Positions 1-35,474 of a stretch of DNA of 64,000 nucleotides are shown piece by piece. The stretch spans positions 1,003-65,002 of the forward strand of contig CAZFHY010000012.1 in assembly GCA_964519305.1 (NCBI GenBank), written 5' to 3'. This stretch comes from Candidatus Undinarchaeota archaeon (GTDB lineage Archaea; SpSt-1190; JASMDC01). A program made the position numbers and the translations under genes. Below the pieces are notes generated by a model. The model saw only the letters and a list, made by a program, of their open reading frames with translations. It did not search any database and was not told where the DNA came from. How positions within the stretch are numbered: the first letter of the stretch is position 1; each line of letters opens with the position of its first letter.

Positions 1-1764
1 TTCGATGCTCTCTGTCTTGTCGCCATCCATCAGATAGAGCTTCTCGGCGGCCTTCACCACCGTGGGAACGTAGTCCTTTGCCCGCGGGGTCAGGAGGATA
101 GCGGACTTCTCCAGATGGGCCGAGGCCCGCTTTGGATCTCCCTTGAGGAACTTGGCGCACTTCTGGTGCAGTTCAACGGACGTGTTGACGTTGATGCTCT
201 CGTACTCGGCAGCGCATGACTCCATGTGCTGGATGGCGCTCTGTTCGTCTCCTAGAAGGTGGTACCCTTCGGAGATAGTCTCAAGGAGGAACGGAGGGAA
301 GGTCCCGATCTCCAGCACCTTGTTCATTCGGGAGGGAAGGATGACCTCCTTATAGTATCCAAGCTCACCGGAGCGCTCCTTCCGCAACCGGAGGCAGGCG
401 CTCATCACTTGTTCCAGGTCCTGGATGCGGTCCACGGCCTCACGATTGGTAACATCGATCTGCATGCTCCGCAGAGCGTCCGATGCACCGATACGAACGT
501 CGGGGTCCGAGTACTCCAAGAGCTCGATAAGAGGTTCGACCGCTGCCTTGTCACCGATCTTACCAAGTGCCACGACCGCTTTGTGTCGGAGGTCCAGGTT
601 CGATTGCTTGAGTAGTTCTACGAGGGAGGGCACGGCCTGTTTGTCACCGATAAGCCCGAGAGCAGTGATAGTCTGCGAACGGACGCCCTCGTTCTCGTCC
701 TCGAGTGTCTTGATGAGTGGATCTGTGGCCTTGCTGTGGCCAATCTTGCCGAGCGCTTCGATTACGTTGATGCGGACCGCACCTACGGGATCCTTTAGCT
801 TCTTGATCAAGGAATCTATTGCTCGCTCGTCGCCGAGCTTCCCCAGTGCAATAGCTGCCTCTTCCCGGACCTCGCCTTCCAGGTCGAACAGGGTCTCCAT
901 CAGGGGTTCCACTGCCCGTTCATCACCGAAGTTTCCGAGCGCCTTGGCAGTGCGTGCACGCACCTCGTTATCCGCAGCGTTCAATGTCCGGATGAGCGGT
1001 TCGATAGCCCGACGGTCTCGCATATCCTCCAAGTACCCCACCGCGGTCTGTCGGACGTCCGCATCCGGATCGTCGAGGAGTTCGATGAGGGGATCAATCA
1101 CTTCAGGCACTCCCATCTTGCCCAGCGCCTCGGCCGCCTTGGCCCGCACGACAGGATCCAGGTCGTCCACAAGGAGGACTAAGGCCCCGACCGCGCGGCG
1201 GTCGCCCAAGGTCCCGATCGACTCCACGACTACGGCGCGGACTTCGGGATCCATGTCCTTGAGCAACTCAACAAGGGCAGAGAGCGAGCGGCGGTCGCCG
1301 ATCCTTCCCAAGGCCTCCGCGGACTTCGTCCGGACCTCGACGTTCTCGTCCTTGAGCAGTTCCACGAGCGGTGCCACAGCCTCGGTCCCTATGTGCGTGA
1401 GCGCCCACTTGGCGCGTCTGGAAAGGTCCTCGTCGGCATCGCAGAGGGCGTGGACGAGCGGTGATACGGCCGGTGCGCCGATCTTCGCGAGCGCCCAGGC
1501 GGAGAAGTCGCGCACCTCAGGAGATGTGTCCCGTAGAAGACGGACCAGTTGGTGTACCGCCTCGTCCATCTTGAGCACGCCCAACGCCCACGAGGAGTAC
1601 TTGCGAACGGAAGCGGAGGGATCTTTGAGAGCGCCGATGAATAGGTCCTTTAATGAAAGGTCCTCGAGGTTACCGAGGGCGATGATCGCGTGAGCACGGA
1701 CGTCCCGGTCAGGATCCCGCGCCAGCTGGAGGAGCCTCTGTTTGTGAGTATTCCCTTCTTTCAC
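1..1764 (-). CDS. HEAT-repeat (PBS-lyase-like) protein, partial; its 3' end lies beyond the window start
   Basis: Minus-strand translation gives roughly 30-aa periodic repeats of the form L..LL.D.d..VR..A..ALG.IG (e.g. LVELLKDENVEVRTKSAEALGRIGD; LQLARDPDRDVRAHAIIALGNL). It is not in the ORF track because it runs off the window edge. The 5' end is ambiguous (GTG at 1764, ATG at 1569, or further upstream) and overlaps the 5' region of the divergent ATPase gene. Confidence 0.6.
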   Translation of the reverse strand, partial: MKEGNTHKQRLLQLARDPDRDVRAHAIIALGNLEDLSLKDLFIGALKDPSASVRKYSSWALGVLKMDEAVHQLVRLLRDTSPEVRDFSAWALAKIGAPAVSPLVHALCDADEDLSRRAKWALTHIGTEAVAPLVELLKDENVEVRTKSAEALGRIGDRRSLSALVELLKDMDPEVRAVVVESIGTLGDRRAVGALVLLVDDLDPVVRAKAAEALGKMGVPEVIDPLIELLDDPDADVRQTAVGYLEDMRDRRAIEPLIRTLNAADNEVRARTAKALGNFGDERAVEPLMETLFDLEGEVREEAAIALGKLGDERAIDSLIKKLKDPVGAVRINVIEALGKIGHSKATDPLIKTLEDENEGVRSQTITALGLIGDKQAVPSLVELLKQSNLDLRHKAVVALGKIGDKAAVEPLIELLEYSDPDVRIGASDALRSMQIDVTNREAVDRIQDLEQVMSACLRLRKERSGELGYYKEVILPSRMNKVLEIGTFPPFLLETISEGYHLLGDEQSAIQHMESCAAEYESINVNTSVELHQKCAKFLKGDPKRASAHLEKSAILLTPRAKDYVPTVVKAAEKLYLMDGDKTESIE

Positions 1765-2979
1765 GATCCCAAGGATATCCCCGTTCCGGACCTGCTCCTT
1801 GAAGGGATCCTCCTTTCGGACGACAACATCGAGGAGATCGTGGTCAACTGCTCCACAGAGCCCTTGTGGATCTACCATCGCAGGTTCGGCTGGCTCAAGA
1901 CCAACATCATCATCCCCACGGAACCCCAGATCCATAACTATGCGTCCATCATCGCAAGACGGGTCGGTCGACAGATCACCACGCTCGAACCGCTCCTGGA
2001 CGCGCACCTGGTCACCGGCGACCGCGCCAACGCCACTCTGTTCCCCATATCCAGCAAGGGCAACTCGATGACCATCCGACGGTTCGCCCGGAAGCCCTGG
2101 ACCATCTCCAACTTCCTCAAGACCAGAACACTCAACTCCGAGGCGGCAGCTCTCATCTGGCTCGTGATGCAGTACGAGATGAACATGATCGTCTCGGGAG
2201 GTACGGGTTCGGGAAAGACATCGTTCCTCACGGTCTGTATGCCGTTCATCCAGCCCAACCAGCGTATTGTCTCGATCGAGGACACGCGCGAGCTCCAGCT
2301 CCCCCGTTTCCTCCACTGGGTACCAATGACCACTCGTCAGCCCAATCCCGAAGGGAAGGGTGAGATCACAATGCTCGATCTCATGATCAACAGCTTGCGT
2401 ATGCGTCCTGACCGTATCATCCTGGGTGAAACGCGTCGCCAGAAAGAGGCAGAGGTTCTCTTTGAGGCCATGCTGACGGGTCACTCTGTGTACTCCACGG
2501 TCCACGCTGATACGGCCTCCCAGACCATCAAACGTCTGGCCAATCCCCCTATCAACGTCCCCGAGTCGATGCTCGAGGCCGTCCACCTGAATGTGGTGAT
2601 GTTCCGGGACCGCCGAAAGAGCATCCGACGCTGCTTCCAGATAGCAGAGTTCCTCCCCACGAGCGAGACGGAGGGGACCGGTATGAAAGCGAACCTCCTC
2701 TACCGCTGGCGCCCGAACACGGACACAATCACTGCCCACTCCAAGTCGGTCTCGCTCTTCGACAAGCTCTCGATGCACACAGGACTTACCGAGCTGGAGA
2801 TCACCGAGCAACTCGTCACGAAGAAGAAGGTCCTTGACTGGACCCTGAAGAACAACATCTTCGAACTGGATGAGATCGGACAGATCATGGCCCTGTACTA
2901 CTCGGACCCGGACGGTGTGTTGGAGGTCGTGGAGAAGAACCAGAGCTCGCGCAAGCTCCTCGGTGTGGAGGTCAATTAG
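1690..2979 (+). CDS. Tad/type-IV-pilus family secretion ATPase (TadA/CpaF/FlaI-like, T2SSE domain)
   Basis: Walker A GGTGSGKTSFL; IILGETR Walker-B/Asp box region; a conserved N-proximal block IEEIVVN...ARRVGRQI...TIRRF typical of GspE/VirB11-family ATPases. GTG start at 1690 (the start is uncertain; an alternative GTG lies at 1744). Confidence 0.85.
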   Translation: MSTDVPVRIPRQLEEPLFVSIPFFHDPKDIPVPDLLLEGILLSDDNIEEIVVNCSTEPLWIYHRRFGWLKTNIIIPTEPQIHNYASIIARRVGRQITTLEPLLDAHLVTGDRANATLFPISSKGNSMTIRRFARKPWTISNFLKTRTLNSEAAALIWLVMQYEMNMIVSGGTGSGKTSFLTVCMPFIQPNQRIVSIEDTRELQLPRFLHWVPMTTRQPNPEGKGEITMLDLMINSLRMRPDRIILGETRRQKEAEVLFEAMLTGHSVYSTVHADTASQTIKRLANPPINVPESMLEAVHLNVVMFRDRRKSIRRCFQIAEFLPTSETEGTGMKANLLYRWRPNTDTITAHSKSVSLFDKLSMHTGLTELEITEQLVTKKKVLDWTLKNNIFELDEIGQIMALYYSDPDGVLEVVEKNQSSRKLLGVEVN

Positions 2980-3915
2980 GTGGTCACGAGTGAGAAACCA
3001 ATCGTGACCACCGAACCCGTCTTCGAGATGGAGATCACGCGCCTGCCCATCTGGCCGGTGCCCATCGACAAGGCGGCAGCGCAGTCCCACACGTTCCTCG
3101 GGTTCGCCCAGATGATCAGGCCGGGATTCCCCGAGCTGGACCTCACCCTGCGTCAGGCCAAGGTCGGTATCGACGCCGAGGTTTTCCTCTCCATCGCCTG
3201 CTACTACTCGTTCCGCATGACCATTATGTTGCTCATAGCGTTCGAGTTCTTCGCGTTCCAGACGGGCTCGGAGCAGGGTATCGTCTGGGCACCCATCATC
3301 GCAATCCTCCTCGGCTGCTTCCACGTGATGTACCAGGCCATGTATCCCAAGCTCCTGGTAATCAAGAAGGTCAAGGCCCTCGAGCGCAACCTCCTCTTCG
3401 CCCTGCGCGCCATGCTCATCCAGGTGAACTCGGGCATCTCCCTCTACCACTCCCTGGCCCTCATCGCTAGCGGCGAGTACGGGCTGGTGTCCGAGGAGTT
3501 CAACAAGGCCATCACCCGCATCAATGCCGGTATCCCCGAAGAGGAGGTGCTCATGGAGCTTGCCATGGAGAACCCATCCATGTTCTTCCGGCGTGCCATC
3601 TGGCAGATCGCCAACGCCGTCACCGCGGGCTCGGACGTGAGCCACACCCTTCGCGAGATCATCAAGACGCTTTCAAAGGAACAGGGCGTGCAGCTTCGTG
3701 CCTACGGCTCACAACTCAATCCAATGGCGCTCATGTACATGATGATCGCCGTCATCCTTCCTTCTCTCGGCGTCACGTTCATGATCGTGCTCTCGGGCCT
3801 CCCGTCGGTGAACGTGTCCGAGATCATGTTCTGGCTCCTCTATGCGGGTGTGGCGCTGTTCCAGTTCATGTTCATGGGGATGATCAAACAGAAGAGGCCC
3901 AGCCTGCTGGGGTGA
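2980..3915 (+). CDS. T2SSF-domain membrane protein (TadB/FlaJ-like platform protein)
   Basis: GTG start immediately after the ATPase stop. T2SSF-like helical cytoplasmic domain (LERNLLFALRAMLIQVNSGISLYHSLALIA...TLREIIKTL) flanked by TM segments. Confidence 0.75.
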   Translation: MVTSEKPIVTTEPVFEMEITRLPIWPVPIDKAAAQSHTFLGFAQMIRPGFPELDLTLRQAKVGIDAEVFLSIACYYSFRMTIMLLIAFEFFAFQTGSEQGIVWAPIIAILLGCFHVMYQAMYPKLLVIKKVKALERNLLFALRAMLIQVNSGISLYHSLALIASGEYGLVSEEFNKAITRINAGIPEEEVLMELAMENPSMFFRRAIWQIANAVTAGSDVSHTLREIIKTLSKEQGVQLRAYGSQLNPMALMYMMIAVILPSLGVTFMIVLSGLPSVNVSEIMFWLLYAGVALFQFMFMGMIKQKRPSLLG

Positions 3916-3916
3916 T

Positions 3917-4927
3917 ATGATGGCGTTCCGTAAAGAGTACCTGTACATCACCCTCGCCCAGCTGGTGCCCCGCGTCGTGCAGGATAGTATCGAAGAGCTC
4001 ATGCTCTTCTGTGAGATCGAAATGGACTCCAGGGTGTTCCTCGGGCTCATGCTTATCGGTGGAACACTATTCTCCCTGGCAGCAGGTATCTATGCTGTGT
4101 TCGCCTTTAAAGTAGGCATCATCTTCGGGTTCATCCCGATCGTCGCTATCGCGTTCATTCTCACGGAGAGCGGTATCTACATCGCCCTCACGCTCTCAGC
4201 AGACGCCAGTGGCCTCTATGCGGAAGAGGTCCTCCCCGACGCACTGCAGCTCATGGCCTCCAACCTCCGCGCCGGGCTCACGCCCGACCGGGCCTTGTTG
4301 GTCTCAGCCCGACCTGAGTTCGGTTCGCTCGAGCGGGCCATCCGGCGCACATCGAAGGAGGTGATCGCTGGAAAGAACCTCCCCGACGCGCTCCTCGAGC
4401 TCCCCAAGAACATCAAGTCGAAGGTCCTCATGCGCACCATCCAGCTCATTTCCCAAGGTATACGCTCGGGTGGTAAGATAGCCGACCTCCTTGAACAGAC
4501 CGCCGACGACATGCGCACCCAGAAGATCATCCAGAAGGAGGTTCGTGCGACGGTGCTCATGTATGAGATCTTCATCACACTGGCCGTAGGCTTCGGCGGC
4601 CCGCTGCTCTTCGGCGTGTCGTCCTATCTTACCACTGTGCTCACCGCGCAAACGTCGGCAGGGGGGCAAGTGCCCGACGAGGTCACCTCGAGCATGCCGA
4701 TCGCCCCCATGGGCAAGATCACCATCGACGAGAACTTCGTGGTCATGTACGCAGTTGCCTGTCTCACGCTATCCTCGGTGTTCGGCTCGCTCATCATAGG
4801 GTTGCTCAAAGAGGATAACGAGCTGGCAGGTGTTAAGTTCATCCCACCAATGCTTGTCACAGCGCTATCCCTCTTCTTCGGGGTCAGGCACTTCATATTC
4901 ACGTACTTCGGCGATATGCTGATGTGA
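3917..4927 (+). CDS. T2SSF-domain membrane protein (TadC/FlaJ-like platform protein)
   Basis: Second T2SSF domain (LQLMASNLRAGLTPDRALLVSARPEFGSLERAIRR...IADLLEQTADDMR) with N- and C-terminal TM segments. Tightly coupled to the preceding gene. Confidence 0.75.
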   Translation: MMAFRKEYLYITLAQLVPRVVQDSIEELMLFCEIEMDSRVFLGLMLIGGTLFSLAAGIYAVFAFKVGIIFGFIPIVAIAFILTESGIYIALTLSADASGLYAEEVLPDALQLMASNLRAGLTPDRALLVSARPEFGSLERAIRRTSKEVIAGKNLPDALLELPKNIKSKVLMRTIQLISQGIRSGGKIADLLEQTADDMRTQKIIQKEVRATVLMYEIFITLAVGFGGPLLFGVSSYLTTVLTAQTSAGGQVPDEVTSSMPIAPMGKITIDENFVVMYAVACLTLSSVFGSLIIGLLKEDNELAGVKFIPPMLVTALSLFFGVRHFIFTYFGDMLM

Positions 4928-6308
4928 CGCTGGCAGGCTGTGGTCCCTCCCCGGCGTATGCAGCGATGGCGCATATGGCAACAGTGAGGCTCAGATAGTT
5001 CATGTGGAGCGAGCGCATGAATATTGACGCCACCAGCAGGGTGGCAGCGAATCCTGTGCACATGGCTCGGAATGTGCCCTTCCTGGCCTGACGCCTAAGT
5101 AAAGTAATTGCGACTGGAAGAGTGACAGCGATGTGGAACAGCCACATGGGAAAACCGCCCCTCGAGGACGCGAGCCCTAGATGGAGCAGGATGGTGCCGA
5201 TGCCGTAGGAGTAGTAGCCCCGCAGTGGGTACTCCTCGGCCGAGCCCCCCATTGTGTAGAGCACGGTGTCGTCGATGAACGACCACGGGTCCAAGAGGAA
5301 GAAGGGTGCATTGATAATGAGTACGGTAACAGCAAGGTAGACCATCGCCCTGCTACTCAAGACCTTCCTCACCCTGTTCTTGTCAAGCTCGCCCGGGCCG
5401 TAACCGGAGGCGGCGAGGGCGAAGAAGGGAAAGTAGATCCAGGCCAGCTGCTTGCTCGACAACGCGAGCCCCGCGGCGATACCGGCCGGAGCGTACCTCC
5501 GCTCGCGGAGGAGCACCAAGCTCATCACTAGCCATGAGAGCACGAACACGTCGTTGTATCCCGATAACATCCAGGGGAGCATGAGCGGGTTGAGGAGGAC
5601 GAGGGCCTCCAATGATCGCTTATTCGGTCCGTCCTGCGCGAGCCGTGGAAGGTAGAGCGCGAGGAGACAGTACGAGATAAGGAGGACTATGCGATTGTCG
5701 AAGAATCCCACGGCGGCCTCCATGAGGATGGCGAAGGGCACGGCGAAGACGACGTGGAAAGGCATGTAGGCATAGTGTGCCAGCGCTGGATTGCGTGCGT
5801 AGCCTAGTTTGTGGAAGACCCCATCGTACCTGCCTGAGTCGACCACGGTGCCCCCGTAGTCCTCAGTGTAGGGATTTCGGCCCTGGAGCACCAGTGTCAC
5901 CACGTACTCCTCCTGGAGCAGTCCGTCGAACTGGTTCTTGTCGTCGCCCGAGCGGTGACGGGCGTACACGTGGAAGAGCAACGGGATAACGACCACCAAC
6001 AGGACGATAGTCCCGAAGCACGTCCTCCTAATGATCCGTTGCCAGCGGACGGACCACGCGCTCCCAAGGACGTCCACCATGAGGTAGATCACAGCGAGCC
6101 CGAGCGAAATGGACCCGATGAGCCACTTGAGAGGTTGCCCGAAGAAAATCCCTGCCACCGGCGCTCCGACCAATCCCAGGAGATTGTTCATGGTAGGGAC
6201 GTTAGCGGCCATAAGGAGCGTGAGGACCAATAGAAGGATGCTATCAGGTCCTATAAGCCCATCCCCGTCATCCGCAGGAGCACCACCGTCCGTTTTACGT
6301 TCTTCCAC
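4899..6308 (-). CDS. polytopic integral membrane protein (more than 10 TM), possibly a GT-C-like glycosyltransferase or a DUF2029-like protein
   Basis: 469-aa ORF that is hydrophobic throughout, with loops containing acidic and aromatic residues. No catalytic motif was recognised with confidence. Confidence 0.45.
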   Translation of the reverse strand: MEERKTDGGAPADDGDGLIGPDSILLLVLTLLMAANVPTMNNLLGLVGAPVAGIFFGQPLKWLIGSISLGLAVIYLMVDVLGSAWSVRWQRIIRRTCFGTIVLLVVVIPLLFHVYARHRSGDDKNQFDGLLQEEYVVTLVLQGRNPYTEDYGGTVVDSGRYDGVFHKLGYARNPALAHYAYMPFHVVFAVPFAILMEAAVGFFDNRIVLLISYCLLALYLPRLAQDGPNKRSLEALVLLNPLMLPWMLSGYNDVFVLSWLVMSLVLLRERRYAPAGIAAGLALSSKQLAWIYFPFFALAASGYGPGELDKNRVRKVLSSRAMVYLAVTVLIINAPFFLLDPWSFIDDTVLYTMGGSAEEYPLRGYYSYGIGTILLHLGLASSRGGFPMWLFHIAVTLPVAITLLRRQARKGTFRAMCTGFAATLLVASIFMRSLHMNYLSLTVAICAIAAYAGEGPQPASVTSAYRRST

Positions 6309-6483
6309 AGTGGCCGACCTGTGCGGATGAGCATGTTAGACGTTAAATGCTTGATGGCCCCGACGCTGCCGGTGCGTGTGCAACGGAAACGTTTAAAACG
6401 TGCAGCGGGCAGGTCAGGGAGGCCGAGAACCGTGGTGCATCGGCGCCATCCGTACCGGCAAGAACTGACATAATGGTGATAGC

Positions 6484-6702
6484 ATGGAAGACGAGGTCAA
6501 GAAGATCATCGAGACAGAGATCGCCCCCGCCCTCAAGATGGACGGCGGCAACATCGAGCTCATCGGCGTCGAGGACGGCGTCGTCAAGGTCAAGCTACAG
6601 GGCGCCTGCGCGGGTTGCCCCATGAGCCAGATGACCCTGATCAACTTCGTAGAGAAGACCCTCAAGCAGAAGGTCCCCGGGGTCAAGCGCGTCGAGGGCT
6701 GA
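6484..6702 (+). CDS. NifU-like (Nfu C-terminal domain) Fe-S cluster scaffold protein
   Basis: 72 aa, with the diagnostic CAGCPMSQMTL motif and overall Nfu fold signature (GG.IEL..VEDGVVKVKLQGAC). Confidence 0.85.
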   Translation: MEDEVKKIIETEIAPALKMDGGNIELIGVEDGVVKVKLQGACAGCPMSQMTLINFVEKTLKQKVPGVKRVEG

Positions 6703-6865
6703 GGGAACCAGGACACGACCACGGCCGATCGTCGTATCGTCATCAGCGGCGGTCTAATGGTGGAATACTGTACCTCCACTGAGATTGATCGATGCGGTGG
6801 CGCATATCGTGATCCACATATTACACGGTAGACACGGAACAACATTGAAGAAAGGTGGAACGAAA

Positions 6866-7747
6866 ATGATCCTGAACACGGACCGACTGCTGGCCCTGCT
6901 CGCATGCCTCCTGCTCCTCGCCGGTTGCACTGGTGGTGAAACACCCGCGGAGGACCCACGCCTGAAGGCCAATCCCGTCGGGGCGGACGGCCTCATAGTC
7001 AGGACCACTGAAGTGCCGGTCGGCAGCACACATCACTTCCTGTTCAGAGGGAACACGGCCGCCGTGCTCATCAACGTGAACGGTGTGTTCCGGGCGTACA
7101 TCAACAACTGTGACCACGAGGGAGGGTTCGTAGCACTGGAGAAGGAAAGCCTGGTCTGCCAGTGGCACGACAGCAGGTTCGATCCTGACACGGGAGCGCT
7201 CCAGCAGGGACCGGCCACAGGACCTTTGAGCACCATCCCCGTCACCGTAAAGGACGGTGGTGTGTACCTCACCGAGGCGTTGAAGGCAGAGGCCACGGTC
7301 ATCGCTACAGAGATCCCGCCCACACCCACCGGGGCGCCTGTCGCACCCACTGAGCCACCGATCGTGCCCACAGACCAACCGGCGACACCAACCAATGTTC
7401 CGGAGCCAACGCCGGCCCCCACGGCGGAACCCACTCCGGACGCGGTCACGGCAGCAAGCCCACAGATCATCGTCAGGACCACCGATCTCCCGCCGGGCGC
7501 TACAATCGAGTTCGATTACAACGGTCGCGATGCGATCATCGTCAACTTCAACGGGATCTATCGAGCGTACATCAACAAATGCAATCACTCCGATGGGCCT
7601 AACGAGCTTAGGGATACCGCTATCGTGTGCAAGTGGCATGGCTCCCAGTTCGATCCCGATACGGGCGCCCTTGTGCGGGGACCTGCGACGGCTCCCCTCG
7701 AGCAGATCAAGCTCACCATCATAGGTGACAAGATCTACGCTGCATAG
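6866..7747 (+). CDS. secreted lipoprotein with two tandem Rieske [2Fe-2S] domains separated by a Pro/Thr-rich linker
   Basis: Internal ATG gives MILNTDRLLALLACLLLLAGCTGG (signal peptide plus lipobox-like Cys). Two CxH...CxxH boxes: CDHEGG...CQWHDSRFDPDTGAL and CNHSDG...CKWHGSQFDPDTGAL. The linker PTPTGAPVAPTEPPIVPTDQPATPT is typical of archaeal surface tethers. Confidence 0.7.
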   Translation: MILNTDRLLALLACLLLLAGCTGGETPAEDPRLKANPVGADGLIVRTTEVPVGSTHHFLFRGNTAAVLINVNGVFRAYINNCDHEGGFVALEKESLVCQWHDSRFDPDTGALQQGPATGPLSTIPVTVKDGGVYLTEALKAEATVIATEIPPTPTGAPVAPTEPPIVPTDQPATPTNVPEPTPAPTAEPTPDAVTAASPQIIVRTTDLPPGATIEFDYNGRDAIIVNFNGIYRAYINKCNHSDGPNELRDTAIVCKWHGSQFDPDTGALVRGPATAPLEQIKLTIIGDKIYAA

Positions 7748-7756
7748 GATCGTGGA

Positions 7757-9502
7757 GTGCCCATCATGGCTGATCCTTTCGGAGCGTTTCCGTCGTTCGT
7801 GTTAGGACTGGGCTCTGCCTTCATGTACGGGCTCTCCCATTCCCTTGGTGCCTGCATCTATTCCTGTCTACCTGTGTACATGCCCATCATCGTGGGGTAC
7901 GGCGATGATCCGAAAAAGGGATTCAGGCTCTCTCTGGGATTCGCTGCCGGGAGGTTCACGGGCTACTTCCTCCTCGGCATCGCAGCCGCTTTCCTCGGTG
8001 CGGCCTTCATCGACTTCTTTTCCACGACATTCCCCCATATCGGGACCGCTGTTCTCGCATTATTCGGACTTGTCACGCTCTTCTACGGTACCATCATGCT
8101 ATCCAGGATCGACCTACCTACTCTCTCAGGGCACTACTGCAAGACCTTTCGTGACAGCACACAGGGATATGACAACCCCTACATCGCAGCCTACCTCCTC
8201 GGCCTCACGTCCACGGTCACGCCCTGCGTACCCATATTCACGTTCCTCCTCCTCCCCTTTGCGCTCGGACGTGTTTGGGAGACCGTACCGGTGACCATCG
8301 CCTTCGGTCTCGGTGCCAACATCCCGTTCGTGTTCATCGGAGTGGCCCTGGCATTTGGAGTGCAGAACGTCAAGCAACGGTTCGACACCTGGCGCCCACG
8401 ACTCGAGCTGTTCAGCGGACTAACACTCATCGTGTTCGGTGCGATCTACATCCTTTGGGCCCTAGGTCCGACCATTCTCGGGTGGCAGGTGACGTCCTTC
8501 ACGATCCCGGACATCCGTGATATTGCAGCTCTGGCGATGTACATCCCACCGACCGTGGTCGAGGGACAATCGCTCTCCCCCTGCCTGCGCGTCGGTTCTG
8601 TGCTGATCCCCGGGAGCGAACCGTACGTGGGGCGGCCGTTCAATGTGGACGTCATCATGACCAACATCTGTGATAGGTCGGTAGAGGCCAGTCTGGTCCC
8701 GGCACTGCCTCCCGGCGTCCACACGGATACACCCATCCCGCTCGTGGCCAACGTGGAGCCCGGTCGGAGCGCGTTGCTCCGGCTCCCCCTTTGGACCGAC
8801 ATAGGGTGGGGCTCCATCATCGATATCGGTGTGGTCCTGGCCGCTGGCGACAGCGCAGGCAGACTACTTCGGCTCGAGCTTCCTGTCGAACTGCGCAATC
8901 CGTTCCTTGAAGTGTCATTCTTCGCTATCACGACCATACTCGTGCTCGCGATGCTGGTCTGGCGCTCACGCAAGGATGGTGAGAACAGCATGCTCCCGCT
9001 CGTCCTGACCGCCGTGGGCATGATCATCGTCGGTATGGCCATTCTCTCCCTGGTAAAAGGTCCGGTCCTCGGGAACAGTGGGTTCTACAATCTTGAGCTC
9101 CTCATGGTCGGGACCATCATCGTGTTCTGGTCCGTGGATATTACCAACCTCTTCAGTGAGCACCCGGACCTGTTCCTCCTCGCCTCGCTGTTCTTCGTTC
9201 GCTTCTACCTGTTCGAACCCGCCTATGGTTTCGGGACCGGGATGAGCTTGTTGACGATCACGACCCGTACCTATGTAACGGACCTTGCCGTAGCTCTCGT
9301 GTCAGTCATCCTTCCGCCAGTGTTCCACGTGAACGCTCATGCACTGCCTTACGGCGTTGCCCCGCTCATTGGTGGGACCGCTTATCTCGCCTGGTGGCTC
9401 ATTCTGTTCAAGGCCATCAGCAGGACCACCAGAACGAGCGCCACGAACGCAGAGGAGCTCATTAGCGCTCCCGGGGCCACGGGTGACGCGGGCGCGGTCT
9501 GA
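7757..9502 (+). CDS. CcdA/DsbD-like thiol-disulfide transporter domain fused to an extracytoplasmic domain and additional TM segments
   Basis: The N-terminal roughly 230 aa show six TM segments with Cys in TM1 (GACIYSCLP) and TM4 (TPCVPIF), matching the DsbD/CcdA SPC.P pattern. This is followed by a roughly 140-aa non-TM domain and 5 or more further TM helices. Confidence 0.5.
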   Translation: MPIMADPFGAFPSFVLGLGSAFMYGLSHSLGACIYSCLPVYMPIIVGYGDDPKKGFRLSLGFAAGRFTGYFLLGIAAAFLGAAFIDFFSTTFPHIGTAVLALFGLVTLFYGTIMLSRIDLPTLSGHYCKTFRDSTQGYDNPYIAAYLLGLTSTVTPCVPIFTFLLLPFALGRVWETVPVTIAFGLGANIPFVFIGVALAFGVQNVKQRFDTWRPRLELFSGLTLIVFGAIYILWALGPTILGWQVTSFTIPDIRDIAALAMYIPPTVVEGQSLSPCLRVGSVLIPGSEPYVGRPFNVDVIMTNICDRSVEASLVPALPPGVHTDTPIPLVANVEPGRSALLRLPLWTDIGWGSIIDIGVVLAAGDSAGRLLRLELPVELRNPFLEVSFFAITTILVLAMLVWRSRKDGENSMLPLVLTAVGMIIVGMAILSLVKGPVLGNSGFYNLELLMVGTIIVFWSVDITNLFSEHPDLFLLASLFFVRFYLFEPAYGFGTGMSLLTITTRTYVTDLAVALVSVILPPVFHVNAHALPYGVAPLIGGTAYLAWWLILFKAISRTTRTSATNAEELISAPGATGDAGAV

Positions 9503-10794
9503 TCGGCACGGACGGCAGCTGCAGGGACCGGACCTTCACCGGACCTGGTGCGCCATGCCACGATCGTTCCATCTTCGAGCCCGGTAAGTAGCTCGACCAT
9601 ACCGTCGCCGTCGAGGTCTGTGAGTACGAGGCTCGTGGAGAGCGTGTGATCGAGACGATCAGGACCGCCGTCCTTACCGATCAGCGACAGACCTCCGAGA
9701 ACGGGTACGAGGACCTCGTCGTCCTGGTCCCCGACAACGTCCGCGCTGACAGGGCCGCCCAGGACCGCAGCACCCAGAGGGACGGACCGTACGACGGCCC
9801 CCGTGCGGTCCAGCAAAACGAGCGTTGTTGCAGAGACCGCGGCAATACGCTCCCCACCATCGAGAGCGACAGGGCCGTGGTCGATATGGCCATCGGTGGG
9901 CGTACTCCATAGAACCTCACCAGCCCCGTCCAGCGCATGGACCATGCCTGCCTGGTCCCCTACGATTATCTCCTGTAGACTATCACCGTCGAGGTCGAGC
10001 AACAGGGGGGCGCCGGTGATCCACTCGCCGAGGGCCCGGCTCCAGCGGAGTGTACCATCGCCGTCCAGGCAGTAGACGTTGCCGTCCATCGAGCCGAACA
10101 CCAGCTCGCCCGCACCATCACCGTCCACGTCGTCCACGGCAGGGAGGGAGAGGATGTCGTCCCCGGCCTGGAACGCCCATCCGAGGGATCCGTCCACGCC
10201 GGTCCTGACGAGCAGCCCGCCATCGTAAACCGCAAAGAGCTCCGCCCGGCCATCACCGTCCAGGTCCACCTCTGCAGGGATGACTGATCCGGAGGAGAAT
10301 GGGATCAGGTTGGTGACGTTGAGATAGCTCGATCCCATGGCCAGGAGGGTCCTGTTCCCGGTCCCGTCGGTCCTCACGAGGGCAAGTGTCCCGTCCCGCG
10401 TGCCCACGACGATCACCGGTGCGTCCTCTCCTTCGAATACGGCCGCGGTCACCGCGACGGCCCCACTATCCTCCAGGGAAAGGTTCGCCAGGATCGTACC
10501 CGTGGTCCCCGAGAGCACGAGGAGGTGCTCACCGCGCGTCAAGGCCACAACGTCGACGTGCCCATCAGCGTCCAGGTCCGCAAGAGCAGGAAGTGCGTTC
10601 ACCTTCTCGCCCAAGGGGGTGCGCCACATGCTGTCGAGGTCCGGACCGGCGGACACGAGCGTAACGAGGAGGATGACGACCGTCGCGAAGAGGTAGCGCG
10701 TCACGGCACTGCACAGGGCGCTACCGTTTAAATCGGTTGCGCACACGGCGCCAGCAGCGCACATAAAAAGGTTCGGTGCGATGCTATGACGCAT
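9382..10794 (-). CDS. FG-GAP-repeat beta-propeller surface protein (signal peptide, C-terminal TM anchor)
   Basis: Repeated DxDGDG Ca-binding-like motifs (DLDGDGRAELF, DVDGDGAGELVFGS, DLDGDSLQEIIVGD, DLDGDGMVELLTG). N-terminal hydrophobic segment and C-terminal TM (FVALVLVVLLMAL). The start was taken at the internal MRHS; the first 32 codons of the listed ORF are Arg/Ser-rich. Confidence 0.6.
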   Translation of the reverse strand: MRHSIAPNLFMCAAGAVCATDLNGSALCSAVTRYLFATVVILLVTLVSAGPDLDSMWRTPLGEKVNALPALADLDADGHVDVVALTRGEHLLVLSGTTGTILANLSLEDSGAVAVTAAVFEGEDAPVIVVGTRDGTLALVRTDGTGNRTLLAMGSSYLNVTNLIPFSSGSVIPAEVDLDGDGRAELFAVYDGGLLVRTGVDGSLGWAFQAGDDILSLPAVDDVDGDGAGELVFGSMDGNVYCLDGDGTLRWSRALGEWITGAPLLLDLDGDSLQEIIVGDQAGMVHALDGAGEVLWSTPTDGHIDHGPVALDGGERIAAVSATTLVLLDRTGAVVRSVPLGAAVLGGPVSADVVGDQDDEVLVPVLGGLSLIGKDGGPDRLDHTLSTSLVLTDLDGDGMVELLTGLEDGTIVAWRTRSGEGPVPAAAVRADQTAPASPVAPGALMSSSAFVALVLVVLLMALNRMSHQAR

Positions 10795-11803
10795 GGCGCG
10801 AACCACCGTCCTCCCCCCCGGGAAGCTCGATCCCCGGCGTCTGCCCGCCCTAGTGTTCGGCGGACTGACCGAGGGCGAGGACGTCGTCATAGGACCGTCC
10901 CTGGGGGAGGACGCGGCAGCTATGCGCCTTGGCGAGGGTTATCTCGTGGCCGCATCCGATCCGATAACAGGGGCAGAAGGGCCTATCGGTCGGCTGCTGG
11001 TCCATGTCAATGCCAACGATGTTGCCACAATGGGCGCTCGACCGCAATGGTTCCTCCCCGTCGTGCTCCTTCCCGAGGGTGCCTCGGAGGACGACCTGGC
11101 ATCCATCATGGACCAGATGTCGCAAGCTGCAAAGGAGGTGGGCGCCGTGATCGTCGGCGGTCATACAGAGGTCACCCCGGGTCTGGACAGACCACTGGTG
11201 AGCGGGTGCATGCTCGGCACGACCGACAGCCTGGTATCGTCCGCAGGTATACGGGCGGGTGACGCACTCGTGCTCACAAAGGGGGCTGCCATAGAGGGCA
11301 GCTGCATCCTGGCCACCGACCGGGCCGCCGAGGTCGAGACGGCCGTGGGTCGTGAGCTGGCAGAGGAGGCGCGGAGGTACACTGACCTGATCTCCATCGT
11401 CCCGGAGGCGCAGGTCGCCGCGAAGGAAAAGTGCACCGCCATGCACGACGTCACGGAGGGTGGTGTGCTAGGTGCGCTCCACGAGCTGTGCTCGGCCGGC
11501 GGTGTCGGGTTCAGGATCGAAGTATCCCGCATCCTGGTCTCGGACGCGACCCGTGCGATCTGCGACCACTACAGCATCGATCCTCTAAAGACCATCTCGT
11601 CGGGTTCGCTCCTCGTGTCCGCATCCCCCGAGCGTGCCGAGACCATCGTTTCCGGCATCAGGGCCCTGGGCGTATGGGCCGACATCATCGGGTATGCCGT
11701 CGACCTAGACGAGGGGACGACCATGATAGATGAGAAAGGGACGGCCCATGAGGCACCATTCCCACCACAGGACCATCTCTGGACGGTCCTCGACGGAGGC
11801 TGA
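10793..11803 (+). CDS. PurM/AIR-synthase-related protein (HypE/ThiL-like fold)
   Basis: N-domain GEDAAAMRL..GYLVAASDPITG and DVATMGARP, and C-domain GGHTEV, are characteristic of the PurM superfamily. A TATA-like cacataaaaagg lies about 28 nt upstream. Confidence 0.7.
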   Translation: MARTTVLPPGKLDPRRLPALVFGGLTEGEDVVIGPSLGEDAAAMRLGEGYLVAASDPITGAEGPIGRLLVHVNANDVATMGARPQWFLPVVLLPEGASEDDLASIMDQMSQAAKEVGAVIVGGHTEVTPGLDRPLVSGCMLGTTDSLVSSAGIRAGDALVLTKGAAIEGSCILATDRAAEVETAVGRELAEEARRYTDLISIVPEAQVAAKEKCTAMHDVTEGGVLGALHELCSAGGVGFRIEVSRILVSDATRAICDHYSIDPLKTISSGSLLVSASPERAETIVSGIRALGVWADIIGYAVDLDEGTTMIDEKGTAHEAPFPPQDHLWTVLDGG

Positions 11804-18583: not shown

Positions 18584-19219
18584 TCAGCCTGAGAGCCGCC
18601 CTTTCGCCCATTCACCGAACGACCGTCCGAACGCCTCGGCATCATCCCGTCGCGCCTCGACCTCGTCGTCCTTCACCCACAGCTCGCGGTCGAACGTGGT
18701 CATTCGAACGTCCGTTAGCCCGCGTGTGATGATGACGTCCTCTCCCTTCAGCTCCCAGCCATAGGTACCGAAACCGCCAGCGGGTCGACCTGCCAGGGCG
18801 GTAATCTGCATATTCCCGAGTAGTCCCTTGATAGCCTCGGAGATGTTCTCGAACTGGCTGGGCGAGCCCAGGAGCACAGCATCGGCCAAGAGCACCTCGG
18901 GCATCGTCTCGCCGGAGGCCTCCAGCACCGCTACCGAGCACTCCGTCTGGCGGACGCCATCGGCGATGGCCCTTGCCAGCGCGGCCGTACGCCCGCTAAC
19001 GCTGTCGTACAGGACCAGCACACGTGGCGGCCCCTTGCGCGAATGCTCCAGGGTGACGGCGTACTCCAGGCACGCCCGGATACATGCTTCGCATTCGGTG
19101 CAGTCCACGGGCCGCATGACGACGCCCTTGCCATCGATGAAGTCGAACACACGGGTAGGGCACACTGACACACAGGTACCCGCTCCCGTGCATCTCCTGT
19201 AGTCGATCCGCGGGGGCAT
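18584..19219 (-). CDS. 2x[4Fe-4S] ferredoxin domain fused to a flavodoxin-like (NADPH-dependent FMN reductase/WrbA-like) domain
   Basis: N-terminus CTGAGTCVSVCP and CTECEACIRAC. This is followed by RVLVLYDSVSGRTAALARAIADGV...LLGSPSQFENIS, a flavodoxin-type FMN-binding pattern. Confidence 0.75.
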   Translation of the reverse strand: MPPRIDYRRCTGAGTCVSVCPTRVFDFIDGKGVVMRPVDCTECEACIRACLEYAVTLEHSRKGPPRVLVLYDSVSGRTAALARAIADGVRQTECSVAVLEASGETMPEVLLADAVLLGSPSQFENISEAIKGLLGNMQITALAGRPAGGFGTYGWELKGEDVIITRGLTDVRMTTFDRELWVKDDEVEARRDDAEAFGRSFGEWAKGRLSG

Positions 19220-24547: not shown

Positions 24548-27500
24548 GTGGGACCGCTCCAAGGAGCATGCCATCGCCGACCTGTGGAGCGACGAGGGCG
24601 TCAACGACTTCCGGCCGACCATCATCTGACCGGACCGCAAGGACCTAACGTTCTACCCCGCCAGCAGCTGCCAGCACCTCTCGGTGGGCTCGAGCAGCTT
24701 GGCCGTACCGTGCTCGACCTCGACCACATAGCCCAGCCTGATGAGCTCGCGGATACGCTTGCGGGCGGTGGGCTTGCTAACGCACAGGTCGATCCCGACG
24801 AGGAGTACGACCTCACCGATGAGGATAAATGGATCCTCGAGCGGCTCGACGACATCGTCGACATCTGCCGGGCGAGGTTCCACGACTTCGATCTCAGTGG
24901 GCCCGCGTCCACCATCCACACGTTTGTGTGGAACGACCTGGTCGATACCTACTTGGAGAGCGAGCTGGGCCGCGCGTCCAACGAGTCGAAGACCTTCTCC
25001 GAAAGTGAGGCTCGGGGTGCCCGGTACACGTTCCACAAGGTCCTGAAGACCATTCTCAAGCTCCTCGCTCCAATGACACCGTACATAACCGACTACATCT
25101 GGCGGGAGTTGTACAGTGAAAAGAGCATCCACATCCAGCCCCTGCCCTGGAGGACCGAGGTCCCCGAGTGGGAACTGCCGGAGGTCACGCCCATTTACGA
25201 TGTGGTCACTCCGGTCGTGCCCAAGAGGGTGGAACCGCCCAAACCGGTCATCAAGCAAGCTCCACCACCCGTGGTCACCGCCGCGCCCGGCGGACGATAC
25301 TGGGTGTTCAAGCTCCCCGTAGTATGGGGCAAGGAGCTCACCCTCGAGGACTACCTCAAGGCGATCCGCAAAGGCAAGTGGTTCGGACAGACCAAGCGAG
25401 ACGTCCAGGGCGACCGCTGCCCCAAGGTGGGCGACGTGGTCATCATTCGACAGAACGTCGAACAAGCTGGCTCCGAGAAGGACGGACATATGCACGTCCT
25501 CGGCACCGGTCTCGTCGACCGAGTCATCGAGGAGCGGCCCGGCGACTGGGACACCAATGACGACAAGGACGCTGTACGCTGGTTCAGCGTCGAGGACTTC
25601 AGGGAGATACCCGATGGTAGAGCGATCTCACAGGTAGACCTGCCAATGGTCCCCCGTATACTCGAACCCATCACGGCAGAGACTTGGGCCGGTATCAGAA
25701 CTCAGATCATTGCAGGACCGGCACCGGAGCGCTACTGGGTCTTCAAACTACCCGTCGTGTGGGGCAAGGAGCTCACCCTCGAGGACTACCTCAAGGCGAT
25801 CCGCAACGGCAGGTGGTTCGGACAGACAGCTCGCGACGTCCAGGGTGACCGCACGCCCCGTGTGGGCGAGGGCATCATCATCCGAGAGAACGTACAGCAG
25901 GCCGGGTCAGAGAAGGACGGACACATGCACGTCATCGGTACCGGTGTCGTCGGTCGTGTGATAGAGAAGCGTCCGAAAGACTGGAACACCAACGACGACA
26001 AGGACGCTGTACGCTGGTTCAGCGTGAACGAGTTCAAGGAGATCGAGGGTGGACGCAGTGTCTCACAGGTGGACCTGCCAATGGTCCCCCGTATCCTGGA
26101 GCCTCTGACGTTCGACGCGTTCGCTGGTATCAAGGCTCAGGTCGCAGCAGCACCACCCCCGGAGAAGTACTGGGTGTTCAAGCTACCCATAGTGTGGGGC
26201 AAGGAGTTCACGCTCGAGGACGATCTAAAGGCCCTGCGCAAGGGCAAGTGGTTCGGACAGACAGCGCGAGATATCCAGGGCGACCGCGTACCGCGCAAAG
26301 GTGAAGGCATCATCATCCGGGAGAACGTACAGCAGGCCGGGTCAGAGAAGGACGGACACATGCACGTCATCGGCACCGGCATAGTCGGACGTATCACCGA
26401 GGAGCGGCCCGACAACTGGGACACGAACGACGACAAGGATGCTGTACGCTGGTTCAGCGTGGACAAGTTCAAGGAGATCGAGGGCGGACGCAGTGTCTCA
26501 CAGGTGGACCTGCCAATGGTCCCCCGGATCCTGGAGCCTCTCACGTTCGACGCGTTCGCAGGCATCAAGGCACAAGTAGCCGCTGCACCGCCACCGGAGA
26601 AGTACTGGGTGTTCAAGCTCCCGATCGTGTGGGGCAAGGAGTTCACGCTCGAGGACGATCTAAAGGCCCTGCGCAAGGGCAAGTGGTTCGGACAGACAGC
26701 GCGGGACATACAGGGCGACCGTAATCCCTGTGTGGGCGAAGGCATCATCATCCGCGAGAACGTACAGCAGGCCGGGTCAGAGAAGGACGGCCACATGCAC
26801 GTCATCGGCACCGGCATAGTCGGACGTATCACTGATAAGCGGCCCGACAACTGGGACACGAACGACGACAAGGACGCTGTACGCTGGTTCAGCGTGAAGG
26901 AGTTCAAGGAGATCGAAGGTGGCAGGAGCGTGTCACAGGTCGACTTCCCCATGGTCCCCCGGATCCTGGAGCCGCTCACATTCGACGCTTTCGAAGGCAT
27001 CAAGGCGCAGGTCGCTGCAAAACCGCCGCCGGAGAAGTACTGGGTGTTCAAGCTCCCGATCGTGTGGGGTAAGGAGTTCACCCTCGAGGACAACCTCAAG
27101 GCCCTGCGCAAGGGCAAGTGGTTCGGACAGACAGCTCGCGACCTGCAGGGCGACCGCAATCCCTGTGTGGGCGAAGGCATCATCATCCGGGAGAACGTAC
27201 AGCAGGCCGGATCCGAGAAGGATGGCCATATGCACGTCATCGGGACCGGTATCGTCGGCCGTATCACCGAGGAGCGGCCCGACAACTGGGACACGAACGA
27301 CGACAAGGACGCTGTGCGCTGGTTCAGCGTGAAGGAGTTCAAGGAGATCGAAGGTGGCAGGAGCGTGTCACAGGTCGACTTCCCCATGGTGCCCCGGATC
27401 CTGGAGCCTCTCACGTTCGACGCGTTCGCAGGTATCAAGGCACAAGTAGCCGCAGCACCACCACCCCCGCCACCACTGGACTTCGAGCGGTACTGGCTGT

Positions 27501-35399: not shown

Positions 35400-35474
35400 G
35401 GGCTCGTGGTGTAGTTTGGATAGCATGGGGGCTTGCGGAGCCTCAGATCGCGGGTTCAAATCCTGCCGGGCCCA
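35400..35474 (+). tRNA. tRNA-Arg (anticodon GCG)
   Basis: Manual cloverleaf fold: acceptor stem GGGCUCG/CGGGCCC (one G-U), D-stem GUGU/GCAU with a D-loop containing GG, anticodon stem GGGGC/GCCUC with loop UUGCGGA (U33, anticodon GCG, G37), 5-nt variable loop, T-stem GCGGG/CCUGC with loop UUCAAAU, and discriminator A. No encoded CCA. Confidence 0.75.

Follow-up and report, generated by a model that had tools for sequence, protein, structure and literature searches.

A Rieske lipoprotein paired with a four-cysteine CcdA-like membrane protein: a candidate surface redox module of archaea

A 64,000-nucleotide (nt) stretch of DNA from a Candidatus Undinarchaeota archaeon (assembly GCA_964519305.1, contig CAZFHY010000012.1, positions 1,003 to 65,002 of the forward strand), here called the window and numbered from its first letter, carries three genes between positions 6484 and 9502. 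They encode an Nfu-type protein, a Rieske [2Fe-2S] lipoprotein and a membrane protein with a CcdA-like N-terminal half; the last two, which recur side by side in other archaea, are the main subject of this study. An original prediction, made from the letters of the sequence, had read the three genes as a dedicated pathway delivering reducing equivalents to an extracytoplasmic Rieske protein. All three were confirmed at their coordinates, on the forward strand, with the Nfu call upheld by PF01106. The features of the locus are listed here; Rieske residues are counted from the ATG at 6866, and membrane-protein residues (C33, C37, C128, C157) from a GTG at 7757.

6484..6702, forward strand: Nfu-type protein (NifU C-terminal domain), 72 amino acids (aa), PF01106.
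6866..7747, forward strand: two-Rieske-domain [2Fe-2S] lipoprotein, 293 aa, PF00355.
6866-6928, forward strand: signal peptide and LAGC lipobox of the lipoprotein; opens MILNTDRLLALLACLLLLAG, then C.
~6986-7285, forward strand: Rieske domain 1; ligand codons C82 at 7109, H84 at 7115, C98 at 7157 and H101 at 7166.
~7286-7450, forward strand: Pro/Thr-rich linker between the Rieske domains.
~7451-7744, forward strand: Rieske domain 2; ligand codons C239 at 7580, H241 at 7586, C255 at 7628 and H258 at 7637.
7766..8530, forward strand: CcdA-fold, six-helix N-terminal half of the membrane protein, PF13386 and PF02683.
7853, 7865, 8138 and 8225, forward strand: codons of membrane-protein cysteines C33, C37, C128 and C157.
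8564..8899, forward strand: predicted extracytoplasmic seven-strand immunoglobulin-like (Ig-like) beta-sandwich of the membrane protein, from an AlphaFold2 (AF2) model.
8900..9502, forward strand: C-terminal membrane region of the membrane protein, 5-6 predicted helices and a tail, from hydropathy.

The Rieske gene most likely starts at the ATG at 6866, and not at the TTG at 6785 that opens its longest open reading frame (ORF), because all homologues begin there; for the same reason the membrane protein most likely starts at the ATG at 7766 (MADPFG, 578 aa), 18 nt beyond the Rieske stop codon. A gap of 163 nt lies between the Nfu and Rieske genes, and Nfu may have a transcript of its own. Two antisense ORFs on the reverse strand (6414-6959 and 6821-7639) are treated as by-products of the high G+C content. 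A scan for promoters and terminators gave counts no higher than shuffled controls; it relied on bacterial consensus sequences, which are uninformative for an archaeon. A tRNA at 35400-35474 was the only match in an Rfam search.

The Rieske protein matched PF00355 over two stretches (Pfam, E = 1.3e-24), and the ligand set CxH...CxxH is complete in both domains, as CDH..CQWH in the first and CNH..CKWH in the second. The N terminus, MILNTDRLLALLACLLLLAGC, contains an n-region, a hydrophobic h-region and an L-A-G-C lipobox, and lipid modification is predicted; LAGC is a canonical lipobox (PMC6098224). Two complete Rieske domains behind a lipobox signal are therefore present, as predicted originally. 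The Pro/Thr-rich stretch that had been taken for a surface tether was also found, but it links the two Rieske domains to each other and not the lipid anchor to the first. Among solved structures, the nearest are those of Rieske ferredoxins and the b6f Rieske protein (E ~3e-05), and the window protein resembles Rieske ferredoxins and bc1/b6f Rieske subunits in its PF00355 fold and complete ligands. It differs from both in being a lipobox lipoprotein, in its tandem domains (two or three), and in having no RR/Tat signal; no twin-arginine occurs in its signal or in the in-frame upstream extension. The mature protein has no cysteine besides the four cluster ligands of its domains. We found neither a cytochrome b nor an oxygenase as a partner for the Rieske protein, and no cytochrome b among the window ORFs scanned.

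The number of Rieske domains varies. The window protein has two, and 398-aa relatives have three (P0006; 2049-3245 of L005 and 2012-3223 of L016; labels such as L010 to L032 denote relatives' loci, and P0006 and P0050 are relative proteins). Locus L011 (1957-3049) has two separate, adjacent Rieske-type lipoprotein genes; the product of the second has degenerate ligands (CPVH...CPH) and the signal MPRRDARA, the sole RR in the set. At three other loci (L010, 30-707; L020, 3204-4076; L031, 6134-6958), a Rieske domain is fused behind PF03640 (Lipoprotein_15, a "secreted repeat of unknown function"), and two PF03640 repeats were confirmed by Pfam in L010. The Rieske domains of these fusions are of the CPHKGC...CPCH type, with an extra disulfide pair, and L032 has the same type without PF03640; the bc-type extra pair (CxHxGC...CxCH) is thus present at these four loci and missing from the window protein.

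Residues 17-229 of the membrane protein matched both PF13386 DsbD_2 (E = 1.3e-17, 64.8 bits against a cut-off of 24.9) and PF02683 DsbD_TM (E = 8.5e-11, 42 bits against 27.1). The best NCBIfam match was the ArsG organoarsenical permease NF040495 (4e-08, 32.9 bits, cut-off 200), followed by an RcnA-type Ni/Co efflux protein (1.7e-05, 24.1 bits, cut-off 195), with DsbD NF001419 at 3e-04 (19.5 bits, cut-off 330). An AF2 model of the N-terminal half, made from a 30-sequence alignment, had a predicted local distance difference test score (pLDDT) of 77 and a predicted TM-score (pTM) of 0.70. Its only meaningful match in the PDB was CcdA (5VKV; probability 1.00, 24% identity over 234 columns), with TM-scores of 0.50/0.55, the moderate values being attributed to the nuclear magnetic resonance reference structure. 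A profile search of the full-length protein against PDB sequences returned nothing at E <= 1. Hydropathy and the positive-inside rule predict an outside N terminus, six helices, an outside domain of ~140 residues and 5-6 more helices, in agreement with the extra domain and further helices proposed originally.

Four cysteines are conserved in the N-terminal half. C33 and C37 lie in the first transmembrane helix (TM1) as CxxxC, with C37 one helical turn past C33; C128 is in the basic cytoplasmic loop between TM3 and TM4, and C157 forms a PC motif in TM4. A family alignment matches C33 and C157 to the catalytic cysteine pair of CcdA/DsbD, with C37 and C128 being additional. The two transmembrane cysteines that had been picked out from the sequence are therefore real and inside helices, but belong to a set of four. 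TM4 keeps TPCVP, and TM1 reads GAC(IYS)C, in which the preceding proline has been lost and a second cysteine gained. The extra cysteines C37 and C128 are common to an archaeal group and a bacterial group. C128 and C157 (C125 and C154 in A4 numbering) are invariant, and the CxxxC pair occurs in at least 90% of the 30 sequences. An exhaustive HMMER search identified 99 proteins at E <= 1e-3; C-x3-C-x-P is found in the first helix of about 80 of 98 matches, and canonical two-cysteine CcdA/DsbD proteins appear only among the weaker ones (E ~1e-7 to 1e-4). On these alignments, the membrane protein is assigned to a four-cysteine CxxxC subgroup of PF13386 DsbD_2, and not to canonical CcdA/DsbD. Sources label members of the subgroup "sulfite exporter TauE/SafE" or "cytochrome c biogenesis protein CcdA."

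Compared with CcdA itself (PDB 5VKV; PF02683; TC 5.A.1.2), the N-terminal half shares the superfamily, the fold, six helices, the predicted outside position of both termini, the TM1 and TM4 cysteine positions, and the TM4 "TPCxP" motif. It differs by C37, C128, the lost TM1 proline, and a Rieske protein as conserved partner, and neither cytochrome c maturation genes nor a thioredoxin-fold acceptor lie nearby. The CcdA/DsbD-type resemblance assigned originally is borne out by the fold and by a PF02683 match above cut-off; the four-cysteine subgroup, and NCBIfam permeases ranked ahead of DsbD, weaken its identification as a canonical CcdA/DsbD.

The full-length AF2 model was poor (pLDDT 40, 5 sequences), and only the beta-sandwich was usable. 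Residues 270-380 form seven strands (pLDDT ~60-80), for which Foldseek returned only generic Ig-like, PapD, MG and TRAP-beta folds and a FixG-related C-terminal domain. The sandwich has a conserved cysteine pair, C276 (codon 8582) and C305 (codon 8669), both kept in L011. It is placed outside because the separate L011 version of the C-terminal half, encoded by its own gene, starts with its own signal peptide; together with the lipobox signal and the positive-inside rule, this also predicts an outside location for the Rieske domains, as had been proposed. Like DsbD/ScsB, the window protein fuses a membrane core to an outside Ig-like sandwich with a conserved cysteine pair, but the sandwich is C-terminal rather than N-terminal, its cysteines are 29 residues apart, and it has no sequence similarity to DsbD-alpha; the thioredoxin-like gamma domain is absent, and there are instead 5-6 extra helices of no recognisable family. 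The C-terminal half (sandwich and helices) gave no Pfam family at E <= 10, and a search of 1.84 billion representatives turned up only two 50%-identity clusters that have it. Only two of its histidines are invariant, H322 in the sandwich and H469 in the helical region. A NOX/Fre-type protein of DPANN relatives, described below, takes the same operon position as this half; the possibility that the half is a diverged ferric reductase of that type was rejected (hhalign probability 0.1 against the NOX/Fre protein, and no bis-His haem pattern).

Full-length relatives of the membrane protein are rare: they fall into four clusters with 71-91% identity, and one GTDB species representative has such a relative, a metagenome-assembled genome named Candidatus Undinarchaeales. 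Among these close relatives, which share the fused gene arrangement of the window and are called the window clade here, synteny is uninformative on linkage because the whole region is collinear, housekeeping genes included. Distant relatives were recovered by the exhaustive search, a metagenome scan and a profile search as a stand-alone CcdA-like half of ~255 aa that shares 45-57% identity with the window protein; beyond the window clade, every relative has this half as a gene of its own. A Rieske gene lies directly upstream of it, on the same strand and 2-42 nt away, in all nine archaeal lineages examined (the window clade, L010, L011, L018, L019, L020, L021-24, L031 and L032). The DsbD_2 proteins of the nine lineages are 45-69% identical to one another and keep all four cysteines; the lineages span 25% to 75% G+C and have unrelated flanking genes, and the source names include Woesearchaeota, Nanoarchaeia, Altiarchaeota and Undinarchaeales. 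The module is therefore not the peculiarity of a single archaeon that it had seemed. Bacterial four-cysteine relatives had no Rieske neighbour in the sampled loci, which argues that the pairing is specific. Since adjacency holds in nine diverged lineages with different flanks, comparison of these loci supports the view that the Rieske protein and the four-cysteine CcdA-like protein are a conserved functional unit.

The same cannot be said of Nfu. Its identity is clear (PF01106 NifU, E = 1.3e-29, 102.5 bits against a cut-off of 27, profile positions 1-67 of 67), with the CxxC motif CAGC (within GACAGCP) and no hydrophobic segment, and it is predicted to be cytoplasmic. Yet Nfu, like the C-terminal half, stands with the pair in two lineages alone, the window clade and L011 (whose Nfu is 78% identical); the other seven of the nine lineages with a linked Rieske gene lack it there. 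L011 also shares wider synteny with the window, including a convergent propeller gene, so the link may be ancestral; it appears weak and may reflect inherited synteny rather than selected function, and the inclusion of Nfu in the module was not upheld. Judged by gene order, the arrangement of the window clade resembles that of L011 after gene fusions. The two adjacent Rieske-type lipoprotein genes of L011 correspond to one tandem protein, to which some relatives add a third domain, and the CcdA-like gene and the beta-sandwich/helix gene correspond to a single gene.

An additional gene was seen in L010 downstream of DsbD_2 (1572-2078, forward strand). Its Cys-rich product of 168-195 aa has a hydrophobic segment at the N terminus, matches no Pfam family, and might serve L010 as a different extracytoplasmic partner.

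In several lineages the pair adjoins redox and oxygen-defence genes. In L018 and L021-L024 a protein with Ferric_reduct, FAD_binding_8 and NAD_binding domains, a NOX/Fre-type transmembrane NAD(P)H oxidoreductase, overlaps the DsbD_2 stop codon by 4 nt; it could give a separate one-electron input route to the outside Rieske cluster. As a third operon gene it resembles electron export of the MsrQ/NOX/Fre type, of which the 64-kb window has no example. In L031 the pair ends a co-directional run of genes for rubredoxin, ferritin, glutaredoxin/thioredoxin, flavodiiron protein, Pyr_redox_2 and desulfoferrodoxin. In L032 it is divergent from genes for ferritin/rubrerythrin, a Mo-oxidoreductase, rubrerythrin, glutaredoxin/thioredoxin and Pyr_redox_2, and in L020 it follows ORFs that were read from their translations as ferritin-like, flavodiiron-type and TrxR-SOR-like. 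The export of reducing power that had been proposed fits the NOX/Fre proteins of the relatives and the glutaredoxin/thioredoxin and pyridine-nucleotide disulfide reductase genes of their oxygen-defence clusters.

Bacterial relatives of the membrane protein occur in a cassette (L012-L015, L025-L028) of a TonB-dependent receptor, a 260-370 aa protein, a Fer4_5 polyferredoxin and DsbD_2. Some cassettes add HGD-D and BcrAD_BadFG (HgdB/HgdC-like) genes, and L015 adds ExbB, ExbD, TonB and a PCuAC-type gene (PF04314). Judged by its gene content, the cassette looks like an uncharacterised reductive uptake system.

All ligand-complete Rieske partners have a secretory (Sec)-type lipobox signal or an N-terminal anchor, and none has an RR motif. 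To our knowledge, all well-studied extracytoplasmic Rieske proteins are exported folded and with their cluster, by the twin-arginine translocation (Tat) system in bacteria, archaea and plastids and by Bcs1 in mitochondria. Tat is the normal route for proteins that bind a cofactor before export and are exported folded (PMC6098224). A second exported cofactor protein was observed in L032 (5126-5773, reverse strand), where a 215-aa Oxidored_molyb protein, a molybdoenzyme of the sulfite-oxidase/MsrP type, starts MKKLILLAALLLAGC and has a Sec-type lipobox and no twin-arginine. The signals suggest that these archaea may handle cofactor proteins unusually more generally.

The account that we favour, tentatively and at somewhat less than an even chance, is that the four-cysteine CcdA-fold protein is a cysteine-based transmembrane relay that makes, or keeps, the cluster site of the Sec-exported Rieske protein competent. 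With no non-ligand cysteine in the mature window Rieske protein, a thiol-disulfide relay cannot feed electrons to its holo form; it could act only on an empty or damaged cluster site, or on the cysteine pair of the membrane protein's own beta-sandwich. The relay is placed at the apo or damaged site because the ligand cysteines are the only possible thiol targets in the mature window Rieske protein. A cytoplasmic donor of the thioredoxin/glutaredoxin type would hand reducing power to C128 in the loop, from where it would cross by way of the membrane-embedded C33, C37 and C157 to the outer face. There, the two ligand cysteines of each Rieske domain would be kept or re-made as thiols, which would allow the 2Fe-2S cluster to be assembled outside the cell, or restored there once oxidation has damaged it. 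The holo-Rieske domains would serve as surface one-electron carriers, taking their working electrons from another partner, which in the Woesearchaeota and Nanoarchaeia relatives would be the NOX/Fre-type flavocytochrome. The window clade would have elaborated this scheme with its fused Rieske domains and with the Ig-like cysteine pair as a possible shuttle analogous to DsbD-alpha; a supply of clusters by the upstream Nfu, which may also occur, would be the weakest link. A precedent is found in chloroplasts, where CcdA and HCF164 are needed for b6f assembly and HCF164 is reported to interact with the Rieske protein. The domain identities, the predicted topology, the four conserved cysteines, the conservation of the pair, the lack of Tat motifs, and the redox and oxygen-defence neighbourhoods are results of sequence comparison and modelling; which way the relay runs, its chemistry, what it acts on and its physiological role are inferred.

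Several observations weigh against this account. Neither the window ORFs scanned nor the 14 sampled neighbourhoods yielded an extracytoplasmic thioredoxin-fold acceptor, such as ResA, CcmG, HCF164 or a gamma domain fused to the membrane core, which is the usual partner of CcdA. Pfam identified no thioredoxin, thioredoxin reductase, SUF or Tat protein in the neighbours and the larger ORFs to ~40 kb, ORFs beyond that not being Pfam-scanned, and a search of the whole window with local hidden Markov models for a NOX-type protein and the cluster's own domains gave no NOX-type protein; the window ORFs scanned thus offer no thioredoxin, thioredoxin reductase, NOX or SUF. A two-cysteine CcdA/DsbD mechanism does not need C37 and C128, and the layout recalls thiolate metal-relay transporters. 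Metal(loid) permeases rank above DsbD in NCBIfam, with all three matches far below cut-offs, and the nearest bacterial relatives are in operons with TonB receptors, Fer4_5, ExbBD and PCuAC, resembling metal uptake. No machinery was identified for delivery of iron and sulfide outside the cell. Finally, the Mo-oxidoreductase of L032, as a second exported cofactor protein with no Tat signal, raises the possibility that cofactor proteins are exported independently of an RR motif, in which case assembly outside would be unneeded. Our confidence is limited because the thioredoxin-fold acceptor is missing, the extra cysteines are unexplained by the CcdA mechanism, and the affinities of the subgroup are metal-like.

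The strongest alternative, less probable but to be taken seriously, is that the membrane protein is not an electron carrier but a thiophilic metal or iron-sulfur (Fe-S) permease, which would load the exported apo-Rieske protein by thiolate ligand exchange from the loop cysteine through the CxxxC/PC site; its cargo could be Fe(II), a [2Fe-2S] cluster from Nfu, or Cu(I). Like the PF13386 metal(loid) permeases (ArsG and RcnA-type), which give its best Pfam and NCBIfam matches, the window protein has Cys-rich helices that suit soft ligands; unlike them, it has no fused metal-binding domain, and its neighbour is a Rieske protein and not a metal chaperone or regulator. PF13386 is the stronger of the two Pfam matches, and we take this family to be linked to UreH-type nickel permeases. 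Most of the LysE superfamily, which includes DsbD, transports metals or amino acids, and within the DsbD family itself there are reported roles in resistance to mercury and copper (PMC4608589). The NCBIfam matches that place ArsG and Ni/Co efflux above DsbD nevertheless fall far below their cut-offs, and the only solved structural relative is an electron carrier. Metal-related features in relatives also point this way: P0050 has a His/Met-rich tail, the PCuAC-type gene of L015 stands beside TonB/ExbBD, and the L029 neighbourhood contains a cation P-type ATPase and a YHS-domain gene. For Fe(II), there is no conserved His, Asp or Glu in the helices that would favour it. For a cluster, four conserved cysteines would suffice to ligate 2Fe-2S, and the lack of an RR signal implies acquisition outside the cell, but a system that carries Fe-S clusters out through the cytoplasmic membrane of a prokaryote is not known. 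As a source, Nfu would be apt in the window clade and L011, where its gene stands immediately upstream; its absence from seven of the nine lineages counts against it.

A bolder proposal, which we regard as improbable, makes the pair the core of a Tat-independent extracytoplasmic Fe-S route: the apo-Rieske protein would be exported unfolded through Sec, and the four-cysteine CcdA-fold protein would hand across the membrane to the Rieske site either a thiolate-ligated 2Fe-2S cluster, drawn from a carrier in the cytoplasm (the neighbouring Nfu, for example), or the iron and reductant to build one.

Reductive metal uptake is somewhat less probable again. Here an outside Rieske protein, supplied with electrons by a NOX/Fre-type or other donor, would reduce Fe(III) or Cu(II), and the four-cysteine DsbD_2 protein would import the reduced ion, much as in the bacterial cassettes of TonB receptor, Fer4_5 reductase and DsbD_2. 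Bacterial CxxxC relatives always stand beside TonB-dependent receptors and Fe-S reductase-like proteins, ferric-reductase-family proteins adjoin in L018 and L021, ferritin genes lie near the pair in L020, L031 and L032, and the iron user Nfu adjoins in the window. The neighbours in L020, L031 and L032, however, are classic genes for detoxification of oxygen and reactive oxygen species and not for iron uptake; Rieske proteins are not known as metal reductases, no metal-binding lipoprotein or regulator was found nearby, and the insertion of a cluster into a Sec-exported Rieske protein would remain unsolved.

The original prediction taken literally, in which a DsbD/CcdA-type protein continuously reduces the holo-Rieske protein and Nfu belongs to the same pathway, seems to us very unlikely. 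The DsbD family match, the CcdA fold, the tight gene coupling and the thioredoxin-system genes near the pair in L031 and L032 are all in keeping with it. The chemistry is not: thiol-disulfide exchange by CcdA/DsbD is a two-electron process and the Rieske cluster a one-electron carrier, and the mature protein has no non-ligand cysteine for disulfide exchange. The relatives, moreover, encode a chemically suitable one-electron donor, NOX/Fre, adjoining the pair, and Nfu is linked in only two related lineages. What survives of the dedicated pathway is the Rieske/DsbD-like pair in nine lineages; direct reduction of the holo-protein, with no thiol to receive it and no thioredoxin-fold acceptor, does not.

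That the three genes are mere neighbours by shared ancestry in a narrow clade, as the syntenic window-clade region with its housekeeping genes would allow, deserves almost no credence, and for the Rieske/DsbD_2 pair it is effectively refuted by persistence across nine lineages of widely different G+C content with different flanks and short gaps, and by a specificity that the Rieske-free bacterial relatives bring out; for Nfu it may still hold.

Around the three genes, the window contains further genes. On the reverse strand, 9382-10890 encodes a 502-aa FG-GAP/PQQ-like beta-propeller protein with a hydrophobic C-terminal segment resembling a membrane anchor. The gene is convergent with the membrane-protein gene and overlaps its 3' end by 121 nt (9382-9502); the overlap is kept in close relatives (~120 nt) and in the distant L011 (4823-4940), and both overlapping frames appear real. 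Upstream lies a set like that of an archaeal type IV pilus or archaellum, with a T2SSE ATPase (1690-2979) and two T2SSF membrane proteins (2980-3915 and 3917-4927), all on the forward strand, and convergent with it a GT87/MptA-like membrane glycosyltransferase (4899-6308, reverse strand). The neighbourhood, including the propeller protein, is cell-surface related. An AIR-synthase-family protein (10793-11803, forward strand; PF00586 and PF02769) stands beside the cluster in all close relatives and resembles HypE (1e-31), SelD and ThiL, all far below family cut-offs. The only other obvious redox protein among the ORFs scanned is a 211-aa fusion of a 2x[4Fe-4S] ferredoxin and a flavodoxin-like domain (18584-19219, reverse strand). 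An ORF of 1117 aa (24548-27901, forward strand) has the anticodon-binding domain of class I tRNA ligases near its N terminus, and over residues 587-655 a match to Phage_tube (PF04985) that clears the Pfam cut-off with no stretch passing alone; either an unusual fusion or read-through as an artefact of the G+C-rich DNA may explain it.

The literature on CcdA and Rieske proteins in archaea, DsbD_2/PF13386, the LysE superfamily and DsbD, PF03640, DPANN and Altiarchaeota yielded no description of the module, and no paper on a Tat-independent Rieske protein was found. For a protein of the CcdA/DsbD superfamily, the cysteine layout, the conserved Rieske partner and, in the window clade, the fusion are new. 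They set a large, uncharacterised four-cysteine subgroup of PF13386, widely mis-annotated, apart from true CcdA/DsbD. The occurrence of Sec/lipobox Rieske proteins in at least nine archaeal lineages conflicts with the textbook picture of folded, cluster-loaded export, and implies either an unrecognised export route for cofactor proteins or partner-aided insertion or repair of the cluster outside the cell; both would be new biology. The Tat-independent route, if true, would make this the first system to assemble Fe-S proteins outside the cytoplasm, and would mean a transport chemistry new to the CcdA/LysE fold. Archaea of the DPANN and Altiarchaeota types are usually described as having no respiratory chains; for them, the module is a candidate surface redox system, tied to NOX-type and oxygen-defence genes.

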